IMG/VR virus record: IMGVR_UViG_3300031413_000624
Length of the DNA stretch: 64,000 bases
Direction: 5' to 3' (one strand)
DNA from: a virus
This document shows positions 6,304 to 25,974 of this stretch, piece by piece. The stretch's first letter is position 1. Each line of letters begins with the position of its first letter. The position numbers and the translations under genes were made by a program. Below the pieces are notes generated by a model. It worked only from the letters and a program-made list of their open reading frames with translations, was not told where the DNA came from and ran no database searches.

Positions 6304-6327
6304 TTGCAACCTATTGGAAAGGCTATC

Positions 6328-6819: not shown

Positions 6820-7172
6820 ATGAACCAACAACATTAACATTATGGAGACCTGTTGGTCCAAAAGAGTTAGCTCTCATTGCTCAATCAGGTTACCAAGAAT
6901 TTCCGCCTCGCTTACCAGACCAACCTATCTTCTACCCTGTTCTCAATGAGGATTATGCAAGGAAGATAGCTTCAGGTTGGAACGCTAAATATGATGGTGG
7001 CGGGTTCGTAACGCAGTTCCAGGTGGAAAAACGCTTCATTGACCGCTACAAGGTCCAGCAGGTTGGCGGAGCAACAATTTTGGAATACTGGATACCTACT
7101 GAAGACTTAGATGACTTCAACGAACATATCGTCGGATTCATTGAAGTCATCGCTGAATACCCTTCGGTTTAA
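6816..7172 (+). CDS. hypothetical protein (118 aa)
   Basis: ATGA start/stop overlap with the upstream gene. Confidence 0.5.
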   Translation: MNEPTTLTLWRPVGPKELALIAQSGYQEFPPRLPDQPIFYPVLNEDYARKIASGWNAKYDGGGFVTQFQVEKRFIDRYKVQQVGGATILEYWIPTEDLDDFNEHIVGFIEVIAEYPSV

Positions 7173-7174
7173 AG

Positions 7175-7193
7175 TTGAGCTGAGTCCACTCAA
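7175..7193. promoter_or_regulatory. HAIR-like inverted repeat (HspR operator-type) upstream of dnaK
   Basis: TTGAGC-tgagtcc-ACTCAA matches the actinobacterial CTTGAGT-N7-ACTCAAG consensus. Confidence 0.5.
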
Positions 7194-7196
7194 CTA

Positions 7197-7213
7197 TTTT
7201 TCGTCAAAATGAC
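7197..7213. promoter_or_regulatory. TTTTTCGTCA-N3-TGAC operator-like motif (copy 1)
   Basis: tttttcgtcaaaatgac; same motif recurs at 25069 and 56233. Confidence 0.45.
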
Positions 7214-7271
7214 CTCTATTGAAAAAATGGTGTATGCTGTCATCATAAGTTCAACGAAAGGGTAACATAAA

Positions 7272-9125
7272 ATGGCTCGTACAATTGGTATCGACCTTGG
7301 AACCACAAACTCAGCTGCTGCAATCCTTGAAGGTGGAGAAGCGACAGTCATTGCAAACGCGGAAGGTGTTCGCACCACCCCATCCATTGTCGCATTCACA
7401 AAAGATGGTGACACGCTCGTCGGTGAAACCGCAAAACGTCAGGCAGTCACCAACGTTGACCGCACCATCCGCTCTGTAAAGCGCCACATGGGTACCACTT
7501 GGTCAACCACCATTGAGGGTAAGAAGTACACTGCTCAGGAAATCTCTGCCCGTATCCTCATGAAGCTCAAAAAAGATGCAGAGACTTACCTTGGTGAAGA
7601 TGTTGACTCCGCTGTCATCACCGTTCCTGCCTACTTCAATGACGCGGAGCGTCAGGCAACCAAAGAAGCTGGTGAGATTGCTGGACTAAAAGTTCTCCGT
7701 ATCGTCAATGAGCCTACCGCCGCAGCAATTGCATACGGTCTTGACAAGGTAAAAGAGTCCGAAACTGTTCTCATCTACGACCTCGGTGGTGGAACCTTCG
7801 ACGTGTCCCTTCTTGACATTGACAAAGACTCTGATGACGGCTTCGCAACCATTGAGGTACGTGCAACCGCAGGTGATAACCGACTCGGTGGCGATGACTG
7901 GGACAAGGCCCTGGTTGATTACATCAACGAGCAGTTCAAGGCTGCTTCTGGTGTTGACATCACAGGTGACAAGATTGCTCAGCAGCGTATCCGCGAGGGT
8001 GCAGAGCAGGCTAAGAAAGAGCTTTCCAGCGGTAGCAGCACAAGCGTTCAGCTCCCGTATATCTCTCTCACCTCTGAGGGTCCTCTGAACTTGGATGTTA
8101 CTATTACCCGTGCGAAGTTTGAAGAGTTGACCAAACCTCTCCTTGACCGCACTAAGAAGCCATTTGAGCAGGTTCTTGCCGATGCTGGTATTACCACAAG
8201 TGACATTGCGAACGTTATTCTTGTTGGTGGTTCAACTCGTATGCCTGCTGTTGTTGACCTGGTGAAGTCTTTGACAGGCAAGCAGCCCTCCCAGAATGTG
8301 AACCCTGATGAGGTTGTTGCTCTCGGTGCAGCTGTTCAGGCTGGTGTTGTGACTGGTGAGCGTAAGGATATCCTCCTGATTGACGTTACCCCGCTGTCTC
8401 TTGGTTTGGAGACTGCGGGTGGAGTTATGACGAAGCTCATTGAGCGGAACACTGCTATTCCCACTAAGCGGAGTGAGACCTTCACTACTGCGGTTGATAA
8501 CCAGCCGTCTGTTGCTGTTCAGGTCTTCCAGGGTGAGCGTGAGTTTACTCGTGATAACAAGAAGCTCGGTCAGTTTGAGTTGACAGGTATCGCTCCTGCT
8601 CCTCGTGGCCTTCCTCAGATTGAGGTAACTTTCGACATTGACGCAAACGGTATCGTTCACGTCTCTGCGAAGGATAAGGGTACTGGCCGCGAGCAGAAGA
8701 TTACCATCACAGGTGGTTCTTCCCTTTCCCAGGCTGACATCGACCGTATGGTCCGTGACGCTGAGGAGCACGCTGCTGAGGACAAGGCTAAGCGTGAGTC
8801 CCAGGACCTTCGCAACCAGGCTGAGCAGTTGACCTACTCTGCTGAGAAGGTTCTTGTGGACTACGCTGACCAGGTTCCTGCTGATGTCAAAGAAGAAGTA
8901 ACCAATGATATCAACGCTTTGAAGAAGGCTTTGAACGAGGGTTCTGATGATGATGTGAAAGCTGCTGTGGAGCGTTTGAACCAGTCTCAGCAGAAGGTTG
9001 GTCAGAGCGTCTACGGTAACCAGGCACAGGCTGACTCAGCCCCTTCTGAGGAAGCTAACCAGGCTCCTGCTGGTGGTAGCGAGGATGAAGATGTTGTTGA
9101 CGCAGAAATTGTTGACGAGGACTAA
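7272..9125 (+). CDS. dnaK: molecular chaperone DnaK (Hsp70)
   Basis: [16 protein letters not shown] and other Hsp70 signatures; strongly actinobacterial-like N-terminus; 617 aa. Confidence 0.95.
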
Positions 9126-9136
9126 AATTTTGTAAT

Positions 9137-9177
9137 CAAAGAAGCGGCAACCCTGGAACTGGGTTGCCGCTTCTTTG
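9137..9177. terminator. bidirectional intrinsic terminator
   Basis: Perfect 17-bp stem caaagaagcggcaaccc / gggttgccgcttctttg. Confidence 0.7.
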
Positions 9178-9178
9178 A

Positions 9179-9568
9179 TTAATGACTTTGTAACTGCTCT
9201 AAAAGCTCAGGAACCATAAGGTGATGATAATGCAAGGGGTAGACATCAATTCGTTCATCTAAACGTATGAACTGCTTTGTGTGAAGAACCTTTGCTGGAT
9301 TTTTATATGGATTGATAATACCTTTAGTGTACTTGATTATTAAAGGTCGTTGCTGAACGTCAACGTATCCTGCATATTTTTGTTTATCATAAACAACTAC
9401 TTCATTTGTCCATCTATCGTGAACCATTGGCGAATACAGGATGGTTGCATAGTATGCTTCTTTATCTACAAAGAAAACAAGAAGCTCATGTGTTTCAGGC
9501 AACCATTCAAAATCGCTAATAACAGGATTGTAAAACATGCCTAAGTAATCGGTTGCACTTTGGACCAT
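9179..9568 (-). CDS. hypothetical protein (129 aa)
   Basis: ORF flanked by terminators. Confidence 0.45.
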   Translation of the reverse strand: MVQSATDYLGMFYNPVISDFEWLPETHELLVFFVDKEAYYATILYSPMVHDRWTNEVVVYDKQKYAGYVDVQQRPLIIKYTKGIINPYKNPAKVLHTKQFIRLDERIDVYPLHYHHLMVPELLEQLQSH

Positions 9569-9579
9569 TGTGAGCTACA

Positions 9580-10023
9580 ATGATCCTTATGGCTGATCTA
9601 ACCACGTCGAAATATTCTCGTTTTGTTCTCCCTGCTGTCGCTGAGAACATTGAGAAGCTTCTGAATCTCCGGTTTACTGATGAAGACGAGGATGAGTATT
9701 CTCTCGCTGATATGGCTGACCCTGTGAAAGCATCAGGGCATTGCTACGATTCAGCATTGCTAGTTCAGCAATCAGGTCTTGTATTTAACGATGGTCCTAC
9801 TGGTGAGATTCTGAGGGTCATTCCTGAGGGAGAAAATGACCCTGACGGTTGGTGGCATGCAGCGTTCTCTGTGCCAGACCATATCGGGGAGGATATTGTG
9901 TATGATTTCACTATGCGCCAGTTCCACCCTGACCTCCCGTTCCCCTATGTAGGGTTCGCTGACCAGTGGGCTAGCACTATTGAAAAATACGCAGGTCGTG
10001 GCCCTGTTGAGTTTCTTTGGTAG
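9580..10023 (+). CDS. hypothetical protein
   Basis: ORF. Confidence 0.45.
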   Translation: MILMADLTTSKYSRFVLPAVAENIEKLLNLRFTDEDEDEYSLADMADPVKASGHCYDSALLVQQSGLVFNDGPTGEILRVIPEGENDPDGWWHAAFSVPDHIGEDIVYDFTMRQFHPDLPFPYVGFADQWASTIEKYAGRGPVEFLW

Positions 10024-10056
10024 TATTACGAATGATTAAGAAAGAAGTGAATAATA

Positions 10057-10521
10057 ATGGTTGAAACACCTGTCCTCAAACTGGGTAACGAATTTGATGT
10101 ACGTGATTTACAGAAGAAGGTGGCTGAGCTGCGTACAATTATGGTTGAAAGCGTTGAGACTCCTGATGATGTTCGTTTACAGTTGCTGATTCTGAATGCT
10201 GGGTTGGAAAACTTCTTAGAAGGCGAATACGCCGCGGAAGAACCTTCCCGTGACCGTGATGAGGAAATTCGGTTTGCAGATGAAATCAGTGCAGGCTTTG
10301 CTGCTGTGGGAGATAACTATGATGTGAAGTTCATTCACTCATCTATGGTAGAAGAGGTTCTCCAAGAGCAGGCTGCATCTATGGGTTTCTTGGATTCTCT
10401 TCCAGATGTTATTGCGGATGCCATTGACTGGGATAAAGTTGCTGATGTTGCAGCAGCCTCCGAGGATGTTCAGGAAATGTTCATTGATACAGAAGTGTAC
10501 ATTTGTAACCTGTACCTGTGA
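10057..10521 (+). CDS. acidic hypothetical protein
   Basis: ORF. Confidence 0.45.
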   Translation: MVETPVLKLGNEFDVRDLQKKVAELRTIMVESVETPDDVRLQLLILNAGLENFLEGEYAAEEPSRDRDEEIRFADEISAGFAAVGDNYDVKFIHSSMVEEVLQEQAASMGFLDSLPDVIADAIDWDKVADVAAASEDVQEMFIDTEVYICNLYL

Positions 10522-10525
10522 TAAT

Positions 10526-10535
10526 CCGATAGAAT
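10526..10535 (+). promoter_or_regulatory. CCGATAGAAT -10-like promoter element (leaderless rnhA)
   Basis: TAGAAT at 10530-10535, ATG at 10542 (6-nt gap). Confidence 0.45.
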
Positions 10536-10541
10536 TCTCTC

Positions 10542-11066
10542 ATGAGCAACAAATTAGTTATCGCCTGTGATGGTTCGTGTTTGAAGAACCCTGGCGGTGA
10601 AATTGGATGGGCTTGGGCTGACAATAAAGGTCGTTGGCAATCTAACGGTGCAGCCACTGGTTCTAACCAGAAAGCTGAGCTGTTAGGTTTACTGTCAGTC
10701 TTCTATGCTTTCCCAAATACTAGCATGCATATCCAACTGGATTCTCAGTATGTGTTGAATATCGCAACTAAATGGATGTTCACATGGAAGAAAAACGGTT
10801 GGTATCGTGATGCTGAGAAAACGCAGGTTGTGAGTAACCTCAACTATGTCCAAGCTATCTATGAGGCGCTTCGTGTTCGGAAGCAGAAGAAGCTTGTCAC
10901 TACGTTTGAATGGGTCAAAGGCCACGCTTCAAACGGTTTGAACAACATAGCTGACAAGGAAGCCCAGGCTGCTGCTCGCCGTATAAAAGCAAGTAAACCA
11001 GGGTATGCGGACTCTGCAAAGAACACTTCCTCAGAACGCCAAAACAGAATGCTTGAATCCTTGTGA
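10542..11066 (+). CDS. rnhA: ribonuclease H (RNase HI family)
   Basis: IACDGSCLKNPGG... RNase H catalytic N-terminus; DEDD-type fold motifs. Confidence 0.8.
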   Translation: MSNKLVIACDGSCLKNPGGEIGWAWADNKGRWQSNGAATGSNQKAELLGLLSVFYAFPNTSMHIQLDSQYVLNIATKWMFTWKKNGWYRDAEKTQVVSNLNYVQAIYEALRVRKQKKLVTTFEWVKGHASNGLNNIADKEAQAAARRIKASKPGYADSAKNTSSERQNRMLESL

Positions 11067-11860
11067 ATTCTACAATCGTATCCTACAACATTCAAATCCC
11101 AGCAGCAAAAGAGGAGCTACATCCTTGGGCTGGGAGAAAGCATGAAGTGCTGGAATGCTTACCTCTTCTTGGCGACCTCATAGGTTTACAAGAAGTAGAT
11201 TACAATACTTCACAAGGACGTGAAGTATCTGAACGTCTCGCGGAGGCTGGATTTAGTAGTTTTCAACCAGGATACGGTGATTCAGAGTACACGGATGAGT
11301 ACCATACTCGTATTCCTGTGTTTTGGAAGAAAGAGCATTTCAAACTGATTCGCCAGGAAGTGCGAATGCTGACAACAGGAACAGTTGAGCAGCAAAAGTT
11401 GCTACCAAACATTGAAGCTCGGTATACTACATATGTACAGCTTGAATGCAAAGGGACACCGTTGCATTTCTTCAACCTGCATCAACAGCATGTCCCTATG
11501 GAGCTGTCCGATCAGAAACTTATTACAGGGTATCAAGCTGTCCAAAGTGCAGGGCTTCAATCCTTACATGACTTCATTCGGGAACTCAATCCAAATGGGG
11601 ATAGAACATTCGTTGTTGGTGACTTCAACGCTACTGATCCTCATGTGAATGGTTATCAAGACGCTTACCGTGTTGCACAGCATACTGAGCATTCAGAATA
11701 CAACAGCTACCATGGATATCAACCAAGCGGCGGCAGCGAAGGCGGGTACATCATCGACCATGTGCTTACAAACCTCACTCAGGCGAACGTGTTGAATGCT
11801 GAGACACTTATACAAGAAAGAGGCAGTGACCACTACCCGATAAGAGTCACCGTTACCTGA
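11063..11860 (+). CDS. endonuclease/exonuclease/phosphatase (EEP) family protein
   Basis: C-terminal SDHYPIRV motif typical of the EEP fold; ATGA overlap with rnhA. Confidence 0.7.
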   Translation: MNSTIVSYNIQIPAAKEELHPWAGRKHEVLECLPLLGDLIGLQEVDYNTSQGREVSERLAEAGFSSFQPGYGDSEYTDEYHTRIPVFWKKEHFKLIRQEVRMLTTGTVEQQKLLPNIEARYTTYVQLECKGTPLHFFNLHQQHVPMELSDQKLITGYQAVQSAGLQSLHDFIRELNPNGDRTFVVGDFNATDPHVNGYQDAYRVAQHTEHSEYNSYHGYQPSGGSEGGYIIDHVLTNLTQANVLNAETLIQERGSDHYPIRVTVT

Positions 11861-11905
11861 AAATATGGTAGGCTTACTCGTTCAACTTACCTTTGTATTG
11901 GAATC

Positions 11906-12601
11906 ATGAGAATCGTCGTCGCATCCTGCTCTGTCATCTACACCGGCCGTGGAGATACTAAACTCCCGCAAGCCGTGCGAGCTATCATCCTCAAAGATGA
12001 CGGATGTATCTCAATCCATAATGATAAGAGCAACAAGCCGCTGAATTACATGGGTAAAGGCAACGTTCACACTGAAACAAAGAACGGTGAAATTACGATG
12101 TGGACATTTGACACTCGTAAAGAGAGTCTACAAATTACCATGCATGAAGTTCTCTCAGACACCAGCTTTGAGATTGACTTGAATGACGCTGGTTTGATCC
12201 GTGACGGCACAGAAAAGCATTTGCAGGCATGGTTGGCAGAACACCCTGAAAGCCTCGGAGAAGGCTTTACATTCGTTGCCCGTGAGCATCAGACAGGTGC
12301 AGGGCCTGTGGACTTACTGCTTGCTGACAAAGATGACAACCTTATCGCTGTTGAAGTGAAACGAATTGCAATGACAGCTTCCGTAGACCAGATTCGTCGT
12401 TATGTTGAAGCGTTGCAGCAGGACGGTATGGAGAATGTCCGTGGAATGATTGCAGCTTTGGATGTTCGTCCAAATACAGTCAAAATGGCTGAAAGACGCG
12501 GCATTGACTGGGCTATTATCCCAACCTACTGGCGTGAAACTGCCTTCATTAATGAAGAAGCAGAATCCGACGAATCAGATTCTGCTTCTTCCGACGAGTA
12601 A
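11906..12601 (+). CDS. nucS: NucS/EndoMS-like endonuclease
   Basis: RIVVASCSVIYTGRGDT N-terminal domain and GPVDLLLAD...AVEVKR RecB-like nuclease motif; 231 aa. Confidence 0.7.
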   Translation: MRIVVASCSVIYTGRGDTKLPQAVRAIILKDDGCISIHNDKSNKPLNYMGKGNVHTETKNGEITMWTFDTRKESLQITMHEVLSDTSFEIDLNDAGLIRDGTEKHLQAWLAEHPESLGEGFTFVAREHQTGAGPVDLLLADKDDNLIAVEVKRIAMTASVDQIRRYVEALQQDGMENVRGMIAALDVRPNTVKMAERRGIDWAIIPTYWRETAFINEEAESDESDSASSDE

Positions 12602-12602
12602 A

Positions 12603-13187
12603 TTACATCGTATTGTCAGGATTCTTTAAATCTTGAGGAGCTACCTTGTATGCATACTCGCTGTTCGCTGATAGGTAGTAGACATACTCTACGTTTTTGT
12701 CTTTCGGATCAGTGACAAGAATGTAATGCCTGCGAGCATCCACATCAAGGTAGCCTGCGGTATCCATGATTTCTTTAGCCTCAGTGTCAGTAAGATTTAG
12801 GTATTCATAATGCTTGTGGAACCAGTTCAGATAGTTGTTCTGAACAGCTTCCACTCGCATCTGAGGCTGCACGAAAGCAATTTGCGTGAAGCTAACAACT
12901 GCGCCAACAACTAAAAGGGCGGCTCCACCAAAAGAAATCAGCGCAGGGATACGACGAAACGCAGGTAGAGCTAACCCGAGAATGAGCAGAGCCAGTGGAA
13001 TGGCGAAAAGCCAGTAGTTGAAATCCTCTAAACCTGTCGGATTGGATGGTACATGCCAACCATTGAGGTCAGAGAGTTTGATTTCGTTGTTCATAACGTG
13101 TAGGATTCCTTTTGTGTTTCTGTTCGCAACTTGACCATTGAACTTTCCTATGGTACCCTGTTTTAGTAAATGAGTAAGGAAAATCAT
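12603..13187 (-). CDS. membrane protein (194 aa)
   Basis: ORF with two TM segments. Confidence 0.4.
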   Translation of the reverse strand: MIFLTHLLKQGTIGKFNGQVANRNTKGILHVMNNEIKLSDLNGWHVPSNPTGLEDFNYWLFAIPLALLILGLALPAFRRIPALISFGGAALLVVGAVVSFTQIAFVQPQMRVEAVQNNYLNWFHKHYEYLNLTDTEAKEIMDTAGYLDVDARRHYILVTDPKDKNVEYVYYLSANSEYAYKVAPQDLKNPDNTM

Positions 13188-14088
13188 GTCTCAGCATATT
13201 AAAGTGTTACGCGGTGTTCAGGGTTCTGGTAAATCAACTGAAGCCTTGAAGTGGGTTCGTCAGGACCCTCTGAATCGCGCCCGCGTGAACCGAGATGACA
13301 TCCGTTTGACTAACTTCGGCTCATATGACCTTCCTCAGGAGTTGGAGTATGCTGTTACGAAGATTGAACATCAGCTGATTCGTACACTGTTGAAGGCGAA
13401 GAAGAGCGTTGTTGTTGACAACGTGAACTTGCGTGCAAAGTACGTGAAAGAGTACTTGCTGATTGCTGATGAGTTCAATGTTCCTGTTCTGTATCAGGAT
13501 TTTCCTGTGGAGCTGGAAGTTGCATTAGCTCGTAATGCTGCTCGTGAGCGTAAGGTGCCTGAGGATGTTATTGTCAAGACTCATAAGCGATACATCCAGA
13601 GAGGTAAGTTCCCTGAGTTCCCTCAGCTGAATTACGACATGTCTGGGCTGTACGTTCCCGATGAGACCCTCCCGAAGGCTATCCTGTTGGATGTTGATGG
13701 CACGGCTATGAAGATTGGCAAGCACCGCGGCCCTTATGATTTCGATAAGGTCATTGATGATGAGCCGAACTTCCCTGTCATTACCACTGTGCAGTCCCTT
13801 GTCGCACATGAAGGCTATAAGGTGATTGTCATGTCAGGTCGTGATGAGATTTGCAAGCAAGATACTCTATTCTCTTTGGAAGTTGCAGGTGTTCCTGTTG
13901 ATGAAATCTACATGCGTCCTCAGGGTGACCGCCGCCCTGATACTGTTATCAAGCGTGAGCTGTTTGATGCGAATGTTCGCAACCGTTTTAACGTGTTGTT
14001 CGCACTTGATGACAGAGATGTTGTGATTGACATGTATAGAAAAGACTTGGGCTTGACTGTTTTCCAGGTTGATTACGGGAACTTCTAA
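13186..14088 (+). CDS. polynucleotide 5'-kinase/3'-phosphatase (Pnkp paralog A)
   Basis: P-loop GVQGSGKST in the N-terminal kinase half; HAD phosphatase motif LLDVDGT in the C-terminal half. Confidence 0.8.
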   Translation: MSQHIKVLRGVQGSGKSTEALKWVRQDPLNRARVNRDDIRLTNFGSYDLPQELEYAVTKIEHQLIRTLLKAKKSVVVDNVNLRAKYVKEYLLIADEFNVPVLYQDFPVELEVALARNAARERKVPEDVIVKTHKRYIQRGKFPEFPQLNYDMSGLYVPDETLPKAILLDVDGTAMKIGKHRGPYDFDKVIDDEPNFPVITTVQSLVAHEGYKVIVMSGRDEICKQDTLFSLEVAGVPVDEIYMRPQGDRRPDTVIKRELFDANVRNRFNVLFALDDRDVVIDMYRKDLGLTVFQVDYGNF

Positions 14089-14099
14089 ATCAGTACAGA

Positions 14100-14158
14100 T
14101 AATGCCAGCATAGGAGACGTTTGACTTTCGTCAGATTGTCTGTTATGCTGGCATTATC
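14100..14158. repeat. 15-bp inverted repeat with 32-nt spacer
   Basis: gataatgccagcata ... tatgctggcattatc downstream of pnkp. Confidence 0.4.
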
Positions 14159-14178
14159 AATTAAACGCAACTATGTGA

Positions 14179-14394
14179 ATGGATGAAGGTTTCATGCCTG
14201 GAATGATGGCTTCCAACAAGAACCGTGCTGTTAACCACGTTGATGGCGCTATGTTCGATGATGGTTTCTGGCAGCACCGCCGCTTCAAGGGTAAGCGCAA
14301 GGCTGGCGCTCCTACTGGTAGTCGTGGTTGGCGACGTGTTCTCCGCGCCAAGGAGAAGGCCGCTACTCGTCGTGACATCGCTGACAACAGCTGA
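14179..14394 (+). CDS. small basic protein (71 aa), uncertain
   Basis: ORF on the dominant strand; overlapping alternative frames. Confidence 0.2.
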   Translation: MDEGFMPGMMASNKNRAVNHVDGAMFDDGFWQHRRFKGKRKAGAPTGSRGWRRVLRAKEKAATRRDIADNS

Positions 14395-15407: not shown

Positions 15408-16074
15408 TTGAAGCAAGGCGTTGAAGGAGTTCAGGTTTGTTCACATTTGTGAAACCTGAACTCCTTTGCGTTTCCCAGATATGATTCAGCTTTTCTACCA
15501 CTGTTGCAGTTGGAATATGGGTTTTATTCAGAAGAAGGTAATTCGTGTTGGCGCTTCGACCTTCTCCACCAAGTCCTGCTTTACCCGCATTTCGCCCTGT
15601 TCGCTGTACAAAGAAATCCGGGTGAGTGGTGCAAAACTGGAACCCTTTTGCGATGGTTATAGATGCAACAGAGCGAACAATTTCCTGATATGACCATAGC
15701 TGAAAAATTCGCTTATCATACTGCCATGTTTGAGTAAGATGCAGTTGCGGATGGACTTTCCCTAATAGCGAAGGGCGGTCAAAAGCTAACGGTAGGAGGA
15801 AAGCTACTGCATCAGCGAAACTGGCAGCATGTCTAAAATACTTGATCGTTGTATGGTGATGTGGAAGCTTTGGTGGTTCACCTAACACCAACGTTTTCAT
15901 TACTCCTCTTTCCCAGGAGCTTCGGAGAAAATCAAGGGGTTCAGGTACCCAGATTGTAGCACCTGGGAACAAAGGAGTAACTGGGCTAATGTCAATAATG
16001 CGATCGTAGTCTGCAATGTGAATACGACTGAGACCTTCTGCTGGGTCCCATTGCTCAATGGGTTGTGGGTTCAT
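15397..16074 (-). CDS. hypothetical protein
   Basis: Start moved to the internal Met with AAGGA RBS. Confidence 0.4.
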   Translation of the reverse strand: MNPQPIEQWDPAEGLSRIHIADYDRIIDISPVTPLFPGATIWVPEPLDFLRSSWERGVMKTLVLGEPPKLPHHHTTIKYFRHAASFADAVAFLLPLAFDRPSLLGKVHPQLHLTQTWQYDKRIFQLWSYQEIVRSVASITIAKGFQFCTTHPDFFVQRTGRNAGKAGLGGEGRSANTNYLLLNKTHIPTATVVEKLNHIWETQRSSGFTNVNKPELLQRLASITE

Positions 16075-16132
16075 CGTTTCGTATCCTTTTTCACATGCGT
16101 TTCGTAACTTCTTCTTCGTTAGATATATCAGC

Positions 16133-17371
16133 ATGACTACCACTCGTAAACCACCTTATTTGCATGCTGACGGTTCAAATTGTTGGACAAAGCATTGCTC
16201 CCGCCGCACCAAGGAAAGCAATGATCGTGCTTCCTTCTTCAAGCAGGTTGAAAAGACCCCAGCTGCGAAGCTTCCTACCAACCTTCCTCCACTGTCAGCG
16301 TTCCAGAAAGCTCACGCTGAGGGCCGTATTGAGAAGTCTGAACACCCAAATTACCCTTACGTGACCTACAAATACGCGCGTACTACGCAGTTCGCTTCTG
16401 ACTGGGATGATGTCACACTTGCTTCTCGTGGAATCATCTTTAACAAGGAAACCGGAGAAGTTGTTGCACGTCCATTTGCAAAGTTCTTCAACTACAATGA
16501 ACCTTCCGTGCCTACTGATAAACTTCATGGTCGTGTGAGCGTCACTGACAAACTTGACGGTTCATTAGGTATTGGTTACGTTGATGAGGACGGTAAGTTC
16601 AACATTGCTACTTCTGGTAGCTTTATCTCTGAACAGTCTAAACATGCTACTCGCATATACCAAGAGAAGTACGAAGGTAAATGGAATCCAAATCCAAACA
16701 TGACATACATGTGGGAAATTATTTACCCTGAGAACCGTGTTGTTGTCAACTATGGTGATGAGGATGACTTACACCTTATTGGTGCTGTCAATAAGCGCAC
16801 GGGTAAGAGCGTCCCATTAGGTGATATCAAAGAGTGGAAGTGGAAGCGTGCAGAAGAGTACAAAAACATTTCTTCTCTTGACTCTGTGCTTGCCACTCCT
16901 GACCGTGAGAACCGTGAAGGTTTCATTGTCCACTACATTGATACTGACACTCGCGTAAAGTACAAGCATGAGCAGTACTTGAACATTCACCGTGTTGCTA
17001 CTGGTGTTACTTCTAAGACTATCTGGCGTAAGATGTCTTTGGGTGAAGATATGGACAGCTGGAAGAGTGGAATTCCTGAGGAGTTCACTGACTTCATTTC
17101 TGAACGTCAGAACAAAATCCGCGCAAACTACGATAATGAAGTCAGCAAAGTTGTTGCTGACCACGCAAAGTTCAAAGCTTCTATGCCTGCTTCATATGAA
17201 CGTAAAGACTTCGCTGTTACATTGAAGAATTCTTCTGTAGTTCCAGCTGAGAATAAACCATTCATCATGAATTATGAATTCAACGGTAAAGTAGCAACAA
17301 ACGAGGTGCAAGCTCGTAAAATTTGGGAGCGCATCAAGCCTACCGATGAGGATACTTTCTGGAACATGTAA
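16133..17371 (+). CDS. RNA ligase family protein (paralog B) with N-terminal Cys-His motif
   Basis: KLDGS motif I; paralog of 4990..6120. Start MTTTRK.. chosen by analogy with MTTTRE.. of the 38971 gene; NCWTKHC motif. Confidence 0.65.
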   Translation: MTTTRKPPYLHADGSNCWTKHCSRRTKESNDRASFFKQVEKTPAAKLPTNLPPLSAFQKAHAEGRIEKSEHPNYPYVTYKYARTTQFASDWDDVTLASRGIIFNKETGEVVARPFAKFFNYNEPSVPTDKLHGRVSVTDKLDGSLGIGYVDEDGKFNIATSGSFISEQSKHATRIYQEKYEGKWNPNPNMTYMWEIIYPENRVVVNYGDEDDLHLIGAVNKRTGKSVPLGDIKEWKWKRAEEYKNISSLDSVLATPDRENREGFIVHYIDTDTRVKYKHEQYLNIHRVATGVTSKTIWRKMSLGEDMDSWKSGIPEEFTDFISERQNKIRANYDNEVSKVVADHAKFKASMPASYERKDFAVTLKNSSVVPAENKPFIMNYEFNGKVATNEVQARKIWERIKPTDEDTFWNM

Positions 17372-17372
17372 A

Positions 17373-17657
17373 TCATCGGTGAAGTAGGTAGTACGCTGCT
17401 AAAACGATAATTCCAATAGCATTCAAAGACATCAGCCCGTATCCAATGTATTTCGCTGGACGGGCTGATGTCTTTTGGTATGACCAGCTGGATAGCGTTA
17501 TGAGAAGAGCCATCAGGAAGCCCGCTCCGCTGATGATCCATTCCTGGGTAGAGAATCCTACAATGGTGAAGAAAAGAAGCGCATCAGCGTAGAGGAAGCT
17601 TACCCAGTATAAGGTTCTGTCAGGTTTGACTGTTTCTACTTCCTTTACTGTATTCAT
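17373..17657 (-). CDS. small membrane protein, uncertain
   Basis: ORF with TM helices; contains an internal hairpin at 17427-17475. Confidence 0.3.
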   Translation of the reverse strand: MNTVKEVETVKPDRTLYWVSFLYADALLFFTIVGFSTQEWIISGAGFLMALLITLSSWSYQKTSARPAKYIGYGLMSLNAIGIIVLAAYYLLHR

Positions 17658-17695
17658 GTAAGTATTAATCGGCTAATTTTGAAAAAGGGGTCAAT

Positions 17696-17716
17696 TTATC
17701 GTCGTTATGACGATAA
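17696..17716. promoter_or_regulatory. palindromic operator-like site TTATCGTC-N5-GACGATAA
   Basis: Perfect 8-bp arms; a TAGAAT hexamer 7 nt downstream (17723-17728); start of the NAD operon. Confidence 0.45.
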
Positions 17717-17763
17717 ACATGTTAGAATATCCTCAGAAGATAATAACAAAGGACACCTTCCTC

Positions 17764-18717
17764 ATGAAAGTATACAACGACACAGTTGTAATGACTGACT
17801 CCCTGATCCGCATGCTTGATGGATATCGCGCTGAACGAGGTTTTAACGCCTCAGAATGGGTTGAGCGTAAAGTTGCTCTCATCAACGCTTACTTCGCGCA
17901 GAGCGGCCTGTCAGGGGCTGTTGTAGGGGTTTCAGGAGGTATTGACTCCGCTGTTGCTCTTTCTCTTGTCGTGAAAGCATCACAGGTGGAAGACAGTCCA
18001 ATCAAGAAGATTGTTCCGATTCTTCTCCCCGCATTTTCCTACACAGGAGCTACCCGTCAGAACGAAGCTACAAACCGAGCAGAAAGCCTGTGCACAAAAC
18101 TTGGACTCGAAGCAGTCATCTTCCATCAGCTCACACCAATGGCTGAAATGATGAATGCAGAATTAGAGAACGTTTTGGGAATTCGGGCAACCCCTTGGGC
18201 TAAAGGCCAGTTAGTTGCATACACCCGAACCCCAATCCTGTACAGCACCTGCTCCATTCTCACGGACGCAGGATATCCAGCCTTAGTCATTGGAACTACA
18301 AATCTGTCAGAAGGTGGATACTTAGGTTATGTCGGTAAAGCCGCTGATGGCATGGTTGACTTACAGGTAGTGAGTGACTTGTACAAATCAGAAGTGTACC
18401 AAGTTGCGGAACTGCTAGAAGTACCAAACCTCATTATGAAAGCAACGCCAACAGGAGACATGTTTGACGGTCGGGATGACGAAACAGTGTTCGGAGCTTC
18501 CTACGACTTCGTGGAACTCTATCACCTCTGGCTGCAAAATGGCTCCGACCCTGAACTTCTGAAAGATGAAACATTCGCAGCAGGAGCGGCGAACCTTGAA
18601 AAGATGCACGCTTACAATGGTCATAAATATCTGTACGGTACACCATCAGTTCATTTGGATATCCTTCGTGCAGACATTCCTGGTGGTTGGAATAACAAAG
18701 CTTGGAGCGCTAAATAA
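17764..18717 (+). CDS. PP-loop ATP pyrophosphatase (NadE-like)
   Basis: SGGIDSAV PP-loop motif; AAAGGA RBS before 17764. Confidence 0.6.
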   Translation: MKVYNDTVVMTDSLIRMLDGYRAERGFNASEWVERKVALINAYFAQSGLSGAVVGVSGGIDSAVALSLVVKASQVEDSPIKKIVPILLPAFSYTGATRQNEATNRAESLCTKLGLEAVIFHQLTPMAEMMNAELENVLGIRATPWAKGQLVAYTRTPILYSTCSILTDAGYPALVIGTTNLSEGGYLGYVGKAADGMVDLQVVSDLYKSEVYQVAELLEVPNLIMKATPTGDMFDGRDDETVFGASYDFVELYHLWLQNGSDPELLKDETFAAGAANLEKMHAYNGHKYLYGTPSVHLDILRADIPGGWNNKAWSAK

Positions 18718-19457
18718 TGGCGACCAAATTTGTCAACCAAATTGACTTCACTATTCCAGCTATCCAACATGAAGTTGAAGTGGAGCCACTTCCTGAGTTA
18801 GACCGTTCAGCAGTGGTTATCCCTAACCTTATCCCAAGCAAAGAACGAGTTCATATCCTCCAAGAACTCAGTAAAGCGAACTGGCAGCCAGTATCCATCA
18901 CTGGAATGTCAGGTAACTGGAAGCCAGGGGATGAAATTGGGTCTTACCGAGCCTCAAACTACACACCAGAATACGCCACTGTATTATGGGACAGAATCAA
19001 ACACGCTTTCCCAACGGTTCGAGTGTTCAATCAGGAAGACAATACTGATTTTGATGACCATGAACTCTGGGAACCTGTTGGAGTTTCTCCACTGCTTCGT
19101 TTCATCAAATACGAAGATGGAGGCTGGCTTGTTGTTCACTATGACGCTCCATATGTTGAAGATGAGGACACTAGGACACTACAAAGCTTTGTTATCTACT
19201 TAGAACAGAGTCCCACGATTGCAGGTGGAGCAACTCGATACCTGCGAGACCCGCAAGCAGGGATTCCTATTGCTCAACGTATTTTAGATGACCAGAAACG
19301 TGCAGCAACCGAGGATGAAGTCCGGCTTCGTTTCACCCCTGAAAATGGAACAGGTGTCATCTTTGACCACAGACTTCTTCACGATGCTGCGCTCGTTCAG
19401 GGCGAAGGTCACAAAATTATTATCCGTACCGACATTATGTACAGGAAAGTCCGATGA
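18717..19457 (+). CDS. 2OG-Fe(II) oxygenase superfamily protein
   Basis: HYDAP (HxD) ... DHRLLH facial-triad arrangement; start/stop overlap with neighbours. Confidence 0.5.
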   Translation: MATKFVNQIDFTIPAIQHEVEVEPLPELDRSAVVIPNLIPSKERVHILQELSKANWQPVSITGMSGNWKPGDEIGSYRASNYTPEYATVLWDRIKHAFPTVRVFNQEDNTDFDDHELWEPVGVSPLLRFIKYEDGGWLVVHYDAPYVEDEDTRTLQSFVIYLEQSPTIAGGATRYLRDPQAGIPIAQRILDDQKRAATEDEVRLRFTPENGTGVIFDHRLLHDAALVQGEGHKIIIRTDIMYRKVR

Positions 19458-20965
19458 AAACAGACCGCTATTTTGATGCGTTATACGAACGCACTCACAG
19501 TGAACAGGATTTAACAACAGCTGGTTGGTTAGAAAAGCCAACACAAGTGAACCAGCAGTTACGGTATTACACAACGCCAGTTGATGCTATCCGTGATGCA
19601 GGCAAGGAAGAAGTCTCTGTTCTGTTTTACCCAGGATGTTTCGCCCCAGTGCATGAAGGTCATATCACTGCAATGCGCTTAGCCAAGGAAGCTGTCGAAG
19701 CGACAGGCGAAACAGTGGTAGCTGGTTTCTTCACACCAGACCATGATGACTACATTATGCGTAAAACGCATGATGAACGTTTCACAGCAGCGAACCGGGT
19801 AGAGCTTCTACATGCAGTAACTAAAACAGAAACATGGATGCAGGTAGACCCTTGGGCTGCTCAGTATGCTCCTACTGATTTGAACTTCACCACATTGTAT
19901 GATCGTTTGAATCAATACCTCAAACGTTGGGTACCAAATGTCAAAGTAAAGCTCTACATGGTGTTTGGTGGAGACAACTACATGTTCGCTAATGCTTTCA
20001 CTGAATATGGGTATGGGGTTTGCGTTCCTCGTGAAGGAGTTTCTATTGACTGGACCACAGTCCATCCTGATGCTCAAAAGCGTGTAGTTCTCAGTACGAA
20101 AAGCAGCACAAATCATTCATCCACAGCGGCCCGAGCAATGTACTCAAACCCTGCTGAAAAAGGTGGTCGGAGTACGATGGGTAAGCGCTACGTCCTTCGC
20201 AACGATTTAGATGCAGCATTTGAGAACACTACGGAGTACCCGAATTATCTTATCGCTCAGACTCTGCAGATTCTCTTCCACTCACATCTTCCAGAGGATA
20301 TCAGTGTCCAAACAGTTGATATTCATGACCAGTTCCAGCATCATCAGGAAAAAGCTGGGATCATTTCAATGGATTCATTTTGGAAAGCTGAATACAATCT
20401 TGACATTACCAGACTCTTCAATGCAGCCGGTGGCCAGAATCATCCATTACGGTACATCAACCGCCCAGGTTCCGATGATTTGCAAACACAAATCAAACGA
20501 ATCCCAGAAGGTGAATATGTACTTGCAGATGACGACATCGCTACTGGTGAAACCATGAAATTTGTTTCCAATGTGTTAGGCACTCACGGCATCAGAATTG
20601 TGGACACTCTAAGTCTTATCGATGAACTCAACACTGACCTGTACGATTTAGCTGACATGAGAGACTATGTGTTAGGGGCAAAGAATGGTGGGTTGACCGT
20701 TGTTGCTCCAAACGGTCAAGTGACACGAATGCCGTACTTTGCTTCCTATGTGAACGTTTCAGCAAGAACACGTATTCAGCCTAATAAAGCTCGCAGTTTC
20801 TCTATTGAAATTTGGAAGCTCAATCGCTCTTTGTACAAGAACAGTAGCCTTACCGTAGGAGACATCAAAGAGCATCAAGATTTCACCCTCTTTGGGTTCT
20901 CAGAGCAGATGCGGCTTGTTGAATTATGTGAGAAGCATTTAGAGCTGTTAGGTGTGCAAAGCTGA
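19454..20965 (+). CDS. nucleotidyltransferase (NMNAT-like, HxGH) fused to a type I phosphoribosyltransferase domain
   Basis: PVHEGH motif N-terminal; VLADDDIATGETM PRPP-binding motif C-terminal. Confidence 0.6.
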   Translation: MKTDRYFDALYERTHSEQDLTTAGWLEKPTQVNQQLRYYTTPVDAIRDAGKEEVSVLFYPGCFAPVHEGHITAMRLAKEAVEATGETVVAGFFTPDHDDYIMRKTHDERFTAANRVELLHAVTKTETWMQVDPWAAQYAPTDLNFTTLYDRLNQYLKRWVPNVKVKLYMVFGGDNYMFANAFTEYGYGVCVPREGVSIDWTTVHPDAQKRVVLSTKSSTNHSSTAARAMYSNPAEKGGRSTMGKRYVLRNDLDAAFENTTEYPNYLIAQTLQILFHSHLPEDISVQTVDIHDQFQHHQEKAGIISMDSFWKAEYNLDITRLFNAAGGQNHPLRYINRPGSDDLQTQIKRIPEGEYVLADDDIATGETMKFVSNVLGTHGIRIVDTLSLIDELNTDLYDLADMRDYVLGAKNGGLTVVAPNGQVTRMPYFASYVNVSARTRIQPNKARSFSIEIWKLNRSLYKNSSLTVGDIKEHQDFTLFGFSEQMRLVELCEKHLELLGVQS

Positions 20966-20982
20966 TACGATAGAACTTACTT

Positions 20983-21576
20983 ATGTTCGCTGTACTCACC
21001 GCCTTAGGCTTATCTGTTTCCGCAGGACTCAACGCGTACCTGCCGTTACTTGCTGTTGGTCTTCTCACCAAATACACTGATGTGTTTCAGCTTCCCAACG
21101 GATGGTCCTGGCTGAATCAAGACTGGGTGCTGATTCTATTCGGGTTACTTGCATTAGCTGAGTTTGTCGCAGATAAAGTTCCAGCGATTGACACATTCAA
21201 CGACATTATTCAAACAGTAGTACGCCCTTCATCAGGAGGTGTCGTATTTGCAGTAGGAATAGGTTCACATACTACTCCTATCACAAATTGGGATGCGTTC
21301 ATTCATTCACAAGCGTTTCCTAGCATTGTTGTAGGTGTGGTGATTGCATTGATTCCACATTTGATGAAGATGCTCATCCGTCCAGTCTTAAATGCAACAA
21401 CTGCTGGGTTAGCTACTCCGTTAGTGAGTTTCGGTGAAGATGTCATTTCGGTAGCATTGATTGCATTATCCATTTTCCTTCCTATCCTTGTCCCAGTAGC
21501 AGTAGTGCTACTCTTCATCATCGCTGTGCGAGTTATCAAACGGTTGCGCAGTAGGACGCAGGTGCAAACAGCATGA
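20983..21576 (+). CDS. polytopic membrane protein (DUF4126-like)
   Basis: Four or more TM helices. Confidence 0.45.
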   Translation: MFAVLTALGLSVSAGLNAYLPLLAVGLLTKYTDVFQLPNGWSWLNQDWVLILFGLLALAEFVADKVPAIDTFNDIIQTVVRPSSGGVVFAVGIGSHTTPITNWDAFIHSQAFPSIVVGVVIALIPHLMKMLIRPVLNATTAGLATPLVSFGEDVISVALIALSIFLPILVPVAVVLLFIIAVRVIKRLRSRTQVQTA

Positions 21577-22247
21577 GAGCATGTCAAGCTAAAAATCCAG
21601 AGACCTGTAAATACCACGGCTATGCTGTGTATGAGCAAAAACGGAATATGCAATCTCCTTCATGGACTACAGAAGAATCTTATGATTTCTTGACGATGCA
21701 TGGAGTAAATCTTCTTCCTCTTGGAACAGTGAAGAAGTGGGACTCAGAGCAGGATTATAAAGCATCATTCTATGAAGTTGAAAATGAATTAACTGGATTG
21801 TTCTCTGGTGGTGGGAGTGGTGAAGAGAAGATAGCTCTTATTGACAAAGACCTTCCTTTTGTTGTGAAATTCGCTGGAGACCCAGATTACCAGAATGGTG
21901 CAGATGGTTTATCCTCCACCTTCCAAGAGTATGTCGCAAGCCGCGATGGTTTGAACGGTCATGATGTAATGGCAAGAACTGAACTATTCTGGCATAAGAA
22001 TGGTTTCCCTATTATTGTTCAAGAAAAGCTGACCCACCTGACCCGTAAAGTGGTAACAGAGCTTGCTGAGCAATTGCCCTGGTTGCCAAAATCTTTCCAC
22101 TCATATGCTCAGATAGGACAAGATGGTTCTGGTAAATGGCGTATTTACGATTTGGATGCGGGAACGCTTATGGACTTCTACCCTGAAGAAACAGGTCAGA
22201 AAGTTCTTGACCAAGTATGGGATGAGTTTTTCCAATTGAAGAAATAG
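21573..22247 (+). CDS. hypothetical protein with N-terminal CQAKNPETCKYHG motif
   Basis: Cys-His motif family member; overlapped start. Confidence 0.5.
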   Translation: MRACQAKNPETCKYHGYAVYEQKRNMQSPSWTTEESYDFLTMHGVNLLPLGTVKKWDSEQDYKASFYEVENELTGLFSGGGSGEEKIALIDKDLPFVVKFAGDPDYQNGADGLSSTFQEYVASRDGLNGHDVMARTELFWHKNGFPIIVQEKLTHLTRKVVTELAEQLPWLPKSFHSYAQIGQDGSGKWRIYDLDAGTLMDFYPEETGQKVLDQVWDEFFQLKK

Positions 22248-25068: not shown

Positions 25069-25093
25069 TTTTTCGTCATTTTGACGATATAAT
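25069..25093. promoter_or_regulatory. TTTTTCGTCA-ttt-TGACGA palindrome abutting a TATAAT -10 box (copy 2)
   Basis: tcgtca(25073-78)-ttt-tgacga(25082-87) followed by tataat 25088-25093, upstream of nadE. Confidence 0.5.
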
Positions 25094-25128: not shown

Positions 25129-25974
25129 ATGACCACTTTACAGAAGCACATCATTGAAACCCTCGGAGTGAAAGCGAAAGTCAACCCAGAGGAAGAGTTC
25201 CGCACTCGTGTAGACTTCCTCAAAGCTTTCACTAAAAATGCAGGAACACGTGGATTCGTCCTCGGGATCAGTGGAGGGCAGGATAGTGCTCTGGCTGGAT
25301 ACGTTGCTCAGACAGCTGTTCGTGAACTCCGTGATGAAACAGGCAAAGACTATGAATTCCTTGCCCTGCTCCTTCCATACGGTACACAGCGGGACGGGGA
25401 TGAAGCAGTAACCATCGCAAAAGACTTTATCAAAGCCGACCAGGTAATTGAATACAACATCAAAGACACTGTAGACGCTTTCGCAAACACCTTCAACACT
25501 ATTGCAGATGCTGACCCTGCAAACGGTGACAACCTTGCCGACTACCACAAAGGTAACGTCAAAGCACGTGTTCGCGCCATCACACAGTACGCATATGCTG
25601 GACAGCGACAGCTTCTGGTTGTTGGGACCGACCATGCAGCAGAAGCTGTCAGCGGCTTTTTCACGAAGTTCGGAGATGGTGCTGCTGACATTCTCCCTCT
25701 TAGCGGTTTGAACAAACGCCAGGGAAAAGAAGTGCTTCGCTTCCTGGGTGCTCCTGAGTTTGTTATCACTAAGGCTCCTACTGCTGACCTTTTGGACACT
25801 AACGCAGGTCAGGCTGATGAGACTGAACTTGGCATCACCTACGATGTGCTGGATGACTACCTTGAAGGCAAGACTGTCGCAGAAGCTGCTCAGCAGAAGA
25901 TTGAACTTCGTTACCTGGTGACTGAACACAAGCGTCAGCAGCCTGTTGACCCTTTTGCTGACTGGTGGAAGTAA
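25129..25974 (+). CDS. nadE: NH3-dependent NAD+ synthetase
   Basis: [12 protein letters not shown]-loop; length and overall pattern of NadE. Confidence 0.85.

Follow-up and report, generated by a model that had tools for sequence, protein, structure and literature searches.

Organization of the locus

The window, the 64,000-nucleotide stretch of DNA that was analyzed, comes from a giant-phage-like genome with a tightly packed set of NAD-type genes, including three overlapping genes at 17764-20965. All three ORFs named in an earlier sequence-only reading were present when the ORFs of the window were checked. They had been described as a PP-loop NadE-like enzyme, a 2OG-Fe(II) oxygenase, and a fusion of an HxGH nucleotidyltransferase to a type I PRTase domain, and domain matches and motifs agreed with these descriptions, for the last domain by a PRPP-loop motif and weak fold similarity. 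The features are as follows:

17695-17717, operator-like palindrome TTTATCGTC-GTTAT-GACGATAAA, 21-23 bp, a perfect 9+9 inverted repeat
17764-18717, + strand, NadE-like PP-loop ATP pyrophosphatase, 317 aa (Pfam NAD_synthase)
18717-19457, + strand, Fe(II)/2-oxoglutarate oxygenase, 246 aa, P4H-like (2OG-FeII_Oxy_3; HxD...H...R intact)
19454-20170, + strand, N-terminal half of the 503-aa fusion, predicted NMNAT-type adenylyltransferase domain (HxGH / SxxxxR)
20171-20965, + strand, C-terminal half of the fusion, divergent PRPP-loop domain, type-I-PRTase-like, motif YVLADDDIATGET
20983-22247, + strand, two co-transcribed downstream genes (DUF4126 membrane protein, 20983-21576; 224-aa ORF, 21573-22247)
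25070-25090, second copy of the palindrome, TTTTCGTCATTTTGACGATAT, with two mismatches; overlaps a TATAAT box, 39 nt upstream of nadE
25129-25974, + strand, canonical NH3-dependent NAD synthetase NadE (NF001979, Pfam)
57192-57779, + strand, PncA-like nicotinamidase, isochorismatase fold (NF008623, Pfam Isochorismatase, motif)

The stop of the NadE-like gene and the start of the oxygenase gene overlap by 1 nt at 18717, and the oxygenase end and the fusion start overlap by 4 nt at 19454-19457. The DUF4126 gene and the 224-aa ORF also share a 4-nt overlap and are kept with the module solely in close relatives. The protein at 57192, previously called PncA-like, matched NF008623 (2.5e-32) at 112 bits, below the 174-bit cut-off, and Pfam Isochorismatase at 6e-21, in keeping with that name. 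Upstream of its gene lie a half-copy of the palindrome motif (56235-56250) and a 219-aa ORF. An Alt-like ADP-ribosyltransferase (PF03496, 4e-19) is encoded within the same window. Neither an amino-acid racemase nor an NrtR gene was found in the window, and an Rfam search of the window and 10 loci returned no riboswitch or other RNA.

A palindrome shared with nadE

The palindromic site reported at the head of the operon is real. Both gene calling and homologue N-termini put the start of the first gene at 17764, as opposed to 17707 in the longer ORF used earlier. Since 17707 falls inside the palindrome and 17764 does not, the palindrome precedes the first gene by about 47 nt. An extended -10-like sequence, TGTTAGAAT, is found just 3' of it. 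The core TCGTCN4TGAC occurs five times compared to 0.49 expected, and this enrichment, together with the two-mismatch copy before nadE, argues that the palindrome is not a chance occurrence. A diverged relative (L006) carries the same palindrome ahead of both its module operon and its nadE.

NrtR operators have a 21-bp GT-N7-AC architecture (PMC2330246). The palindrome at 17695-17717 fits this layout, a feature that carries little information. The module operon may be switched on via a predicted operator that it has in common with nadE. The shared operator suggests that the NAD genes of the phage may be wired to a host ADP-ribose sensor, and such wiring would tie NAD cleavage by defense systems to induction of the counter-measure. 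The idea that the palindrome marks a NAD-specific regulon was weakened by related half-sites that are also found ahead of dnaK.

A divergent NadE-like enzyme beside a canonical NadE

The NadE-like protein matched Pfam NAD_synthase at 2.5e-30 and carries the P-loop SGGIDS, within VSGGIDSAV. It passed only the nadE domain model TIGR00552 (100 bits versus a 63.65-bit cut-off) and scored under every whole-protein NCBIfam NAD-synthase cut-off (best, 119 versus 255 bits), which places it in the NAD_synthase family and short of equivalog-level identity with a characterized NadE. Its best PDB match was the Pyrococcus horikoshii NadE 2e18 (5e-18), followed by 3fiu (5e-15), which we take to be the Francisella enzyme. 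The protein is without a glutaminase domain.

The gene at 25129 had been called a bona fide nadE, and this was confirmed by the NF001979 equivalog (343 bits versus a 250-bit cut-off) and by Pfam (1.7e-63). A canonical NadE was also found in L006 and in the Elusimicrobia locus L014. Because the two genes lie under the same motif in this phage, the NadE-like enzyme is probably not simply redundant with canonical NadE.

The 503-aa fusion protein

The N-terminal domain of the fusion has a HIGH-type nucleotidyltransferase fold with the (H/T)xGH and ISSTxxR motifs of NMNAT/NadD enzymes. Its score is under the NCBIfam equivalog cut-off (TIGR00482, 39 versus 112 bits). From these features, it is predicted to be an NMNAT-type pyridine-mononucleotide adenylyltransferase.

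The C-terminal domain had been called a type I PRTase. The part of this call that stood is the PRPP loop: YVLADDDIATGET has the hydrophobic stretch, the two acidic residues, and the following [ST]Gx[ST] of type I PRTases. Lack of the PRPP-binding residues had been named as a result that would refute the reading; they were looked for, and the loop is conserved. Among 194 members at ≤50% identity, [DE]DDxx[TS]GxT is invariant, and the acidic PRPP loop, six arginines, and several aspartates are near-absolutely conserved. Beyond the motif, similarity was weak. Just about 100 of 264 residues superpose on type I PRTases, there was no significant match to Pfam Pribosyltran, and no Pfam model covers the domain. 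Unlike the type I PRTases (APRT, HGPRT, and OPRT) and the Ter-operon PRTases of phage ME3, the domain has an invariant set of its own (R249, D307, R320, R337, D401-x-RDF, GGL, R425, R438, and N457). The motif and the weak fold similarity hint at a type I PRTase-like domain. A Prs/Adps-like identity was rejected, as the Prs structure scored below the PRTases and no Prs Pfam match was obtained. A standalone homologue in ME3 (ME3_299) adjoins an NAD synthetase and is not a Ter PRTase, and its PRPP loop is degenerate. Among the larger window ORFs scanned, no PRTase of the NAMPT or PncB type was seen, which leaves the C-terminal domain as the sole candidate for phosphoribosyl transfer.

The oxygenase is a core part of the module

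The oxygenase matched 2OG-FeII_Oxy_3 (PF13640), a prolyl-hydroxylase-like Pfam family, at 1.9e-7 (32.4 bits versus a 27-bit cut-off). H141-x-D143, H218, and R237 did not vary across 10 orthologues and supply the iron triad (HxD/E...H) and the basic residue for the 2OG C5 carboxylate that define Fe(II)/2OG oxygenases. Neither a single-sequence nor a profile search found a sequence relative in the PDB, and its 179 relatives are all unnamed. The sequence-only reading had treated the oxygenase as embedded with no obvious role in the pathway, which does not fit its distribution. Four loci (L004, L008, L018, and L020) have it fused to the NadE-like enzyme, and it also occurs inside mega-fusions. In loci of gut origin and from Elusimicrobia, a radical SAM enzyme is present instead. 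One or the other was present in every locus examined, and the oxygenase is a core part of the module.

A conserved four-domain module linked to NAD genes

In the three overlapping genes, the phage carries its own copy of a four-domain module that is conserved and unnamed, with intact catalytic motifs in each domain. The C-terminal domain was found in at least 730 sequence clusters from many bacterial phyla and from cultured jumbo phages (ME3 and X1). The module is mostly bacterial and is not an invention of the phage itself. The NadE-like gene immediately precedes the fusion in 14 of 14 loci, which represent at least eight bacterial lineages and huge phages. All four domains are joined in a single protein of 1,048-1,208 aa in P0219, P0220, P0221, P0231, and P0265, and P0313 combines the NadE-like, NMNAT, and C-terminal domains. 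Gene order and gene fusions thus show that the four domains are obligatorily linked.

Other genes accompany the module in some lineages. These accessory operon genes encode an amino-acid racemase (TIGR00035) or a LysA-like PLP enzyme, a GNAT protein (fused in P0180), and a second radical SAM enzyme; they vary across lineages and are absent from the phage window. Copies from gut metagenomes adjoin a serine recombinase and Lamassu or Hachiman defense genes, and a 617-aa protein of the gut operon showed no glycyl-radical motif. PADLOC had no defense-system model for the core proteins and gave only generic radical SAM/viperin and 2OG matches. When 50,697 phage records were searched with DNA and tblastn, the operon, the fusion, and the C-terminal domain had no match, and the oxygenase alone matched cultured phages. 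Versions of the module are carried by the cultured phages Acinetobacter ME3 and Xanthomonas X1/BUDD. We found no description of the fusion or the module in the literature, and the module appears to be uncharacterized so far.

The module shows links to NAD genes and to NrtR, the NAD regulator. In two Elusimicrobia loci (L013 and L014), the operon begins with NrtR, and in L010 and L019 NrtR is adjacent; L019 also has nadM-Nudix beside it. In Xanthomonas phage X1, NMNAT and NAMPT (nadV) lie beside the NadE-like/oxygenase pair. The window itself adds the PncA-like protein, the canonical NadE, and the ADP-ribosyltransferase. The locus had been described as an NAD+ salvage cluster. The link to NAD holds, through NrtR, the nadM-Nudix and NAMPT neighbors, and the palindrome common with nadE. 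A plain salvage route leaves the set partly unexplained, since, to our knowledge, no NAD salvage step, including those from nicotinate to NAD, requires oxidation and since a canonical NadE lies under the same motif.

Comparison with known NAD pathways

The closest comparison is the Preiss-Handler pathway (PncA - PncB - NadD - NadE). Its nicotinamidase, phosphoribosyl transfer, NMNAT-type adenylylation, and PP-loop amidation steps are all available here, and the phage window also has PncA and a true NadE. Clusters of pncB-nadD-nadE have been reported in gut jumbo phages (PMC11662467). In contrast to this pathway, the module has no PncB, a type II PRTase, and instead has a divergent type-I-like domain, which is fused to a eukaryote-type NMNAT rather than to NadD. 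It also has a second, divergent NadE-like enzyme as an obligate partner and an integral oxygenase or radical SAM enzyme.

The layout had been said to differ from NARP1 and NARP2, and it does, as their defining gene pairs are absent. NARP1 consists of the Prs-like Adps and the NAMPT-like Namat, and the module has neither. For NARP2 (NAMPT/NadV plus NMNAT/Nudix), an NMNAT domain is present and the larger window ORFs scanned included no NAMPT. NARP3, published since the first two, is composed of PnuC and NadR, the latter with NMNAT and NR kinase activities (PMC13464706); the module lacks PnuC and the NadR kinase domain. The NMNAT-type step is common to the module, NARP2, and NARP3. Like all three, the module is a set of phage-borne NAD-building genes plausibly of use against NAD-depleting defenses. 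Unlike them, it adds an amidation and an oxidative step and is mostly bacterial.

The Francisella route of NadE* NMN synthetase and NadM (Sorci et al. 2009, cited in PMC7824862) resembles the module in pairing a divergent NadE with an NMNAT able to take an amidated mononucleotide. The Francisella system is not known to have a PRTase fusion or an oxygenase, and the similarity is at the family level only (5e-15). A 7-deazapurine pathway (QueC/QueE/ToyH-like) was rejected on three grounds: the PP-loop enzyme clearly belongs to the NAD_synthase family, the nucleotidyltransferase is NMNAT-like, and NrtR is linked. A de novo route, with racemase and oxygenase in place of NadB, was unsupported, as there is no linked NadA and the phage is without a racemase.

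Proposed pathway and alternative explanations

We tentatively favor, at a little short of an even chance, a Preiss-Handler-like line from base to dinucleotide with one extra oxidative step, whose role would be upkeep of the NAD+ pool. Such an assembly line would convert a free pyridine-carboxylate base, PRPP, and ATP to a nicotinamide-type adenine dinucleotide. The C-terminal domain would phosphoribosylate the base, which in the phage would most simply be nicotinate made from nicotinamide by its own PncA. The fused NMNAT domain would then adenylylate the resulting mononucleotide, and the NadE-like enzyme would turn the carboxylate into the carboxamide. With a type-I-like PRTase in PncB's stead, this would be a compact Preiss-Handler-like route. 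The oxygenase, or the radical SAM enzyme in versions from the gut and from Elusimicrobia, would carry out one further obligatory step in physical association with the NadE-like enzyme. The module, PncA, and NadE would jointly maintain or restore the NAD+ pool, which could feed the phage's own consumers, such as the Alt-like ADP-ribosyltransferase, and counter NAD depletion by the host.

Several observations speak against this pathway. The oxygenase or radical SAM enzyme is in every locus examined, yet going from nicotinate to NAD needs no oxidation. A canonical NadE lies under the same motif in the same phage, phage X1 already has a full NAMPT and NMNAT route beside the pair, and the accessory genes suggest an amino-acid-derived substrate. 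The same four points, with the interchange of oxygenase and radical SAM enzyme and the GNAT fusion, favor another possible explanation, which we consider somewhat unlikely: that the product of the module is not NAD+ but a non-canonical NAD-like dinucleotide or an ADP-ribose conjugate. The racemase or PLP enzyme, the NadE-like enzyme (through ring closure or amidation), and the oxygenase or radical SAM enzyme would build or tailor the base from an amino acid, after which the fusion would phosphoribosylate and adenylylate it. NMNATs adenylylate carboxamide-azole nucleotides, such as tiazofurin monophosphate. The product could be a cofactor analogue, signal, or antimetabolite in phage-host or inter-bacterial conflict, and the recombinase and defense genes beside the gut copies are consistent with this. 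However, co-transcription with NrtR and the NAD-gene neighborhoods suit ordinary NAD homeostasis, the accessory genes vary by lineage with none in the window, and none of the core proteins has a PADLOC model. A bolder form, which we consider rather unlikely, is a self-contained line for a new NAD-like dinucleotide, its base made or modified by the PP-loop enzyme and the oxygenase or radical SAM enzyme and possibly amino-acid-derived, that huge and jumbo phages and mobile elements deploy in an NAD-centered arms race as a cofactor substitute, signal, or antimetabolite.

Alternatively, the product could still be NAD+, with an amidation that is independent of ammonia. The racemase or PLP enzyme would provide an amino acid for the NadE-like enzyme to join to the carboxylate of nicotinate. 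C-N cleavage, oxidative by the oxygenase in aerobes or radical by the radical SAM enzyme in anaerobes, would then remove the carbon skeleton and leave the carboxamide. Peptide C-terminal amidation and archaeosine formation by RaSEA/ArcS offer chemical analogies. This scheme would account for the repeated NadE-like/oxygenase fusions, the absent glutaminase domain, the departure of the enzyme from canonical NadE, the presence of an NH3-dependent NadE alongside it, and the oxygenase/radical SAM alternation together with the amino-acid enzymes. We nevertheless regard it as improbable: it is purely inferential, NH3-dependent NadE enzymes require no donor, the phage window has no racemase, and the GNAT protein, second radical SAM enzyme, and 617-aa protein are given no role. 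Least probable, in our estimate, is that the C-terminal domain senses PRPP or a nucleotide, like PRTase-fold regulators, while the cluster provides only the last two NAD steps (NMNAT and NadE-like) and the oxygenase acts on a protein. The degenerate loop of the ME3 homologue would suit a regulator, and the prolyl-hydroxylase-like family of the oxygenase would suit a protein substrate. Conservation across the 194 members is, however, typical of an active site, the constant fusion to NMNAT suggests consecutive steps, and the larger window ORFs scanned offer no other PRTase for the pathway.

If the favored Preiss-Handler-like line is correct, it would be a fourth kind of phage-borne NAD-building route. 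It would also be an unrecognized bacterial NAD pathway, with a new PRTase-like domain in place of PncB and an oxygen-dependent or radical step without a textbook counterpart, and would assign a function to the family of at least 730 clusters. A non-canonical product would instead be a new natural dinucleotide. The module is testable, since versions occur in cultured jumbo phages and the single-polypeptide forms could be expressed as one gene.

The operon and its products

The module, which consists of a NadE-like PP-loop enzyme, an Fe(II)/2OG oxygenase and a fusion of an NMNAT domain to a C-terminal domain (C-domain), is encoded in a tightly packed plus-strand operon with the NadE-like gene first.

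Genes of the operon
17764-18717, +, NadE-like gene (317 aa)
18717-19457, +, oxygenase gene (1-base overlap with the NadE-like gene)
19454-20965, +, gene of the 503-aa fusion (4-base overlap with the oxygenase gene)
20983-21576, +, DUF4126 membrane protein, 3' of the fusion gene
21573-22247, +, 224-aa ORF of unknown type, after DUF4126

The sequence-only reading had started the NadE-like gene at 17707, with a palindrome spanning the start. Homologues, by their N-termini, and the gene calls made on identical public contigs both place it at 17764, which puts the perfect 9+9 palindrome (17695-17717) about 47 nt upstream. The operon had no close match, as DNA or protein, among 50,697 deposited phage genomes.

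The NadE-like protein falls in the NAD-synthase family of PP-loop enzymes (Pfam 2.5e-30; motif SGGIDS) and scores far under every whole-protein NCBIfam NAD-synthase cut-off. Its closest solved structures are P. horikoshii NadE and 3fiu, presumably the Francisella enzyme. The gene at 25129, described earlier as a bona fide nadE, passes the NCBIfam cut-offs as a true NadE. The oxygenase, of the P4H-like 2OG-FeII_Oxy_3 family, retains its HxD...H triad and 2OG-binding arginine in all aligned orthologues. It has no sequence relative among solved structures, and none of its 179 homologues is named.

Pfam gave no match in the C-terminal half of the window's fusion, Pribosyltran matches were marginal and confined to 12 of 39 relatives, and the profile match to APRT stood at 0.005. 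Among 194 members at no more than 50% identity, the essentially invariant features were a loop of PRPP type, [DE]DDxx[TS]GxT, together with six arginines and several aspartates. We therefore call the C-domain a putative divergent PRPP-loop, PRTase-like domain despite the weak profile matches. The PRPP loop agrees with the type I PRTase assignment proposed earlier, and matches to the family profiles are marginal or absent; the PRPP-binding residues, whose loss would have spoken against the sequence-only reading, are retained. The C-domain and the gene set go unnamed in Pfam, NCBIfam, PHROG and PADLOC.

Conservation of the module

An exhaustive phmmer census of 1.84 billion representatives found 730 proteins with the C-domain, nearly always C-terminal in chains of 450-640 aa. 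A second survey, scanning one genome per species, found the fusion in MAGs of Clostridiales, Christensenella, Elusimicrobia, Pseudomonadales, Bdellovibrionales, Alpha- and Gammaproteobacteria and Obscuribacterales. Conservation of the module reaches well past this phage. A NadE-like gene immediately preceded the fusion in all 14 compared loci, with the oxygenase between them in phage, proteobacterial, Bdellovibrionales and Obscuribacterales loci. The NadE-like protein and oxygenase form one fused protein in four loci, and single chains of 1,048-1,208 aa, one of them placed on a bacterial assembly, unite all four domains. The four domains are obligately linked through gene order and fusion, with catalytic motifs intact.

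The oxygenase was absent from the Clostridiales, Christensenella, Elusimicrobia and human-gut metagenome loci, whose carriers are taken to be anaerobes. These loci instead carry a conserved radical SAM enzyme of unclassified type, whose gene overlaps the start of the NadE-like gene, and a Cx4Cx2C protein occupies this position in a Pseudomonadales locus. Replacement of O2-dependent enzymes by radical SAM enzymes is known from other pathways. By analogy, this exchange speaks for an oxidative or radical step as part of the module's pathway.

Accessory genes are lineage-specific; an amino-acid racemase (TIGR00035) was found in four loci, one of them in a related huge phage. The human-gut operon (genes 6035-14189 of loci L031-L033) has seven genes, in the order LysA-like PLP enzyme, radical SAM, NadE-like, NMNAT/PRTase-like, GNAT, radical SAM and a 617-aa protein, the last with SelO-like motifs by eye. 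Its neighbours are a large serine recombinase and Lamassu or Hachiman genes, the latter variable, which shows a mobile, conflict-associated setting for the gut copies and does not settle the direction of any anti-defence role. GNAT belongs to gut-type modules or is fused to them (protein P0180).

Links to NAD metabolism

NrtR is an NAD regulator that responds to ADP-ribose. It heads the operon in two Elusimicrobia loci and adjoins the module in two others; in locus L019, a nadM-Nudix gene is a neighbour as well. The module is thus associated with NAD genes and NrtR. Besides its true NadE, the window encodes a PncA-like nicotinamidase and the following genes.

Further genes of the window
32385-33293, +, Alt/exoenzyme-type ADP-ribosyltransferase, which consumes NAD (PF03496 4e-19; phrog_802)
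40952-42400, -, MFS transporter (PF07690 8e-35)
48197-49012, +, GNAT-like acetyltransferase
57848-58687, +, GNAT-like acetyltransferase, weakly supported, directly after pncA

MFS members include the niacin permease NiaP, and by analogy the transporter could be a candidate importer of a pyridine precursor.

A copy of the palindrome with two mismatches (25070-25090), overlapping a TATAAT box, stands 39 nt upstream of nadE. For the exact core TCGTCN4TGAC, five occurrences compare with an expectation of 0.49. Sites of the form TTWTCGTC-N4-TGAC were seen upstream of dnaK (7272; site 7198-7213), the module operon (17696-17716), nadE (25070-25090) and the ORF at 56311 that precedes pncA (56235-56250). 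In L006, a diverged relative with proteins 44-72% identical to the window's, the same element stands 5' of the module operon and of its nadE (sites at 5552 and 12697), two orthologous positions; it constitutes a phylogenetic footprint. We treat the palindrome as a real shared cis-element, probably for a dimeric regulator. With its 21 bp and GT-N7-AC core it follows the architecture published for NrtR operators (PMC2330246). As a pointer to NrtR this is weak, because the window has no NrtR gene and related half-sites lie 5' of dnaK and of the ORF upstream of pncA.

Possible pathway

As predicted from sequence, the C-domain would use PRPP to phosphoribosylate a pyridine-carboxylate base, the fused NMNAT domain would adenylylate the resulting mononucleotide, and the NadE-like enzyme would amidate the carboxylate, with nicotinate supplied from nicotinamide by the phage PncA. 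We tentatively favor such a Preiss-Handler-like NAD line with a non-orthologous PRTase, plus an extra step of unknown nature. It leaves outside the oxygenase/radical SAM step, the co-regulated canonical NadE and the amino-acid enzymes. Two other readings address this step, the second NadE and the amino-acid enzymes. The oxygenase/radical SAM, NadE-like and amino-acid enzymes may build or tailor a base that ends up in a non-canonical dinucleotide, a product we consider rather unlikely. Amidation might instead draw on an amino-acid nitrogen donor whose carbon skeleton is then stripped oxidatively or radically, an improbable scheme. It is more doubtful still that the C-domain, rather than joining base to PRPP, is regulatory.

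As first noted, the layout is neither that of NARP1 (Adps and Namat) nor that of NARP2 (NAMPT and NMNAT). It likewise differs from NARP3 (PnuC and NadR), from the gut jumbo-phage cluster pncB-nadD-nadE (PMC11662467) and from the combinations of NAMPT, NadM and NadR that surveys of jumbo phages and viruses describe. No paper describing the fusion or the module was found. The module would fall under the synthesis of NAD-type dinucleotides and the supply of NAD to phages, with a real chance of something more novel.

Two cultured jumbo phages carry recognisable versions of the module and are ready for experiments. In Acinetobacter phage ME3 (KU935715 216842-221833), the 212-aa C-domain homologue ME3_299 (Foldseek 4.7e-9, HMM 9e-15) overlaps an NAD synthetase whose closer match is the NadE-like protein, not NadE, and an oxygenase with 30% identity lies 2 kb away. 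A macrodomain gene is nearby. In Xanthomonas phage X1 (OQ427096 105048-112638), a weak NMNAT-like 372-aa gene, an oxygenase and an NAD synthase are contiguous, followed by NMNAT and NAMPT.

Genomic setting

The window looks phage-like rather than cellular: it encodes two T4 Rnl1-type RNA ligases, two polynucleotide kinase/phosphatases, a CCA-adding enzyme, a DNA methyltransferase and the ADP-ribosyltransferase, and many ORFs have no family match. No tRNA genes were found in the window. Because no structural genes were seen within it, we infer, rather than observe, a huge phage. An identical fusion protein is encoded on an 878-kb metagenomic contig (ERZ27247405 k141_830180), the source of the window's own locus in the comparison. 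The relatives P0315, P0320, P0333 and P0359 are encoded on contigs of 780-980 kb. These genomes, the window's included, would, if phages, surpass the largest published phage genome, to our knowledge about 735 kb.

The ligases, kinase/phosphatases and CCA-adding enzyme make an unusually redundant tRNA/RNA-repair kit (4990-6120, -; 16058-17371, 13186-14088, 34439-35482 and 46166-47605, +). Other genes of this phage-like genome are as follows.

Chaperone and amidoligase-like genes
7272-9125, +, full-length Hsp70/DnaK (Pfam 9e-232)
27677-30175, +, ClpB-type disaggregase
52503-55550, +, 1,015-aa protein, amidoligase-like in one region (phrog_2443 1e-11) and otherwise of unrecognised architecture

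Shortly past the RNA ligase stop, a perfect inverted repeat of 16 nt around a 19-nt loop (17425-17475) falls inside a small membrane ORF on the minus strand (17373-17657); it could act as a terminator or form some other structured element.
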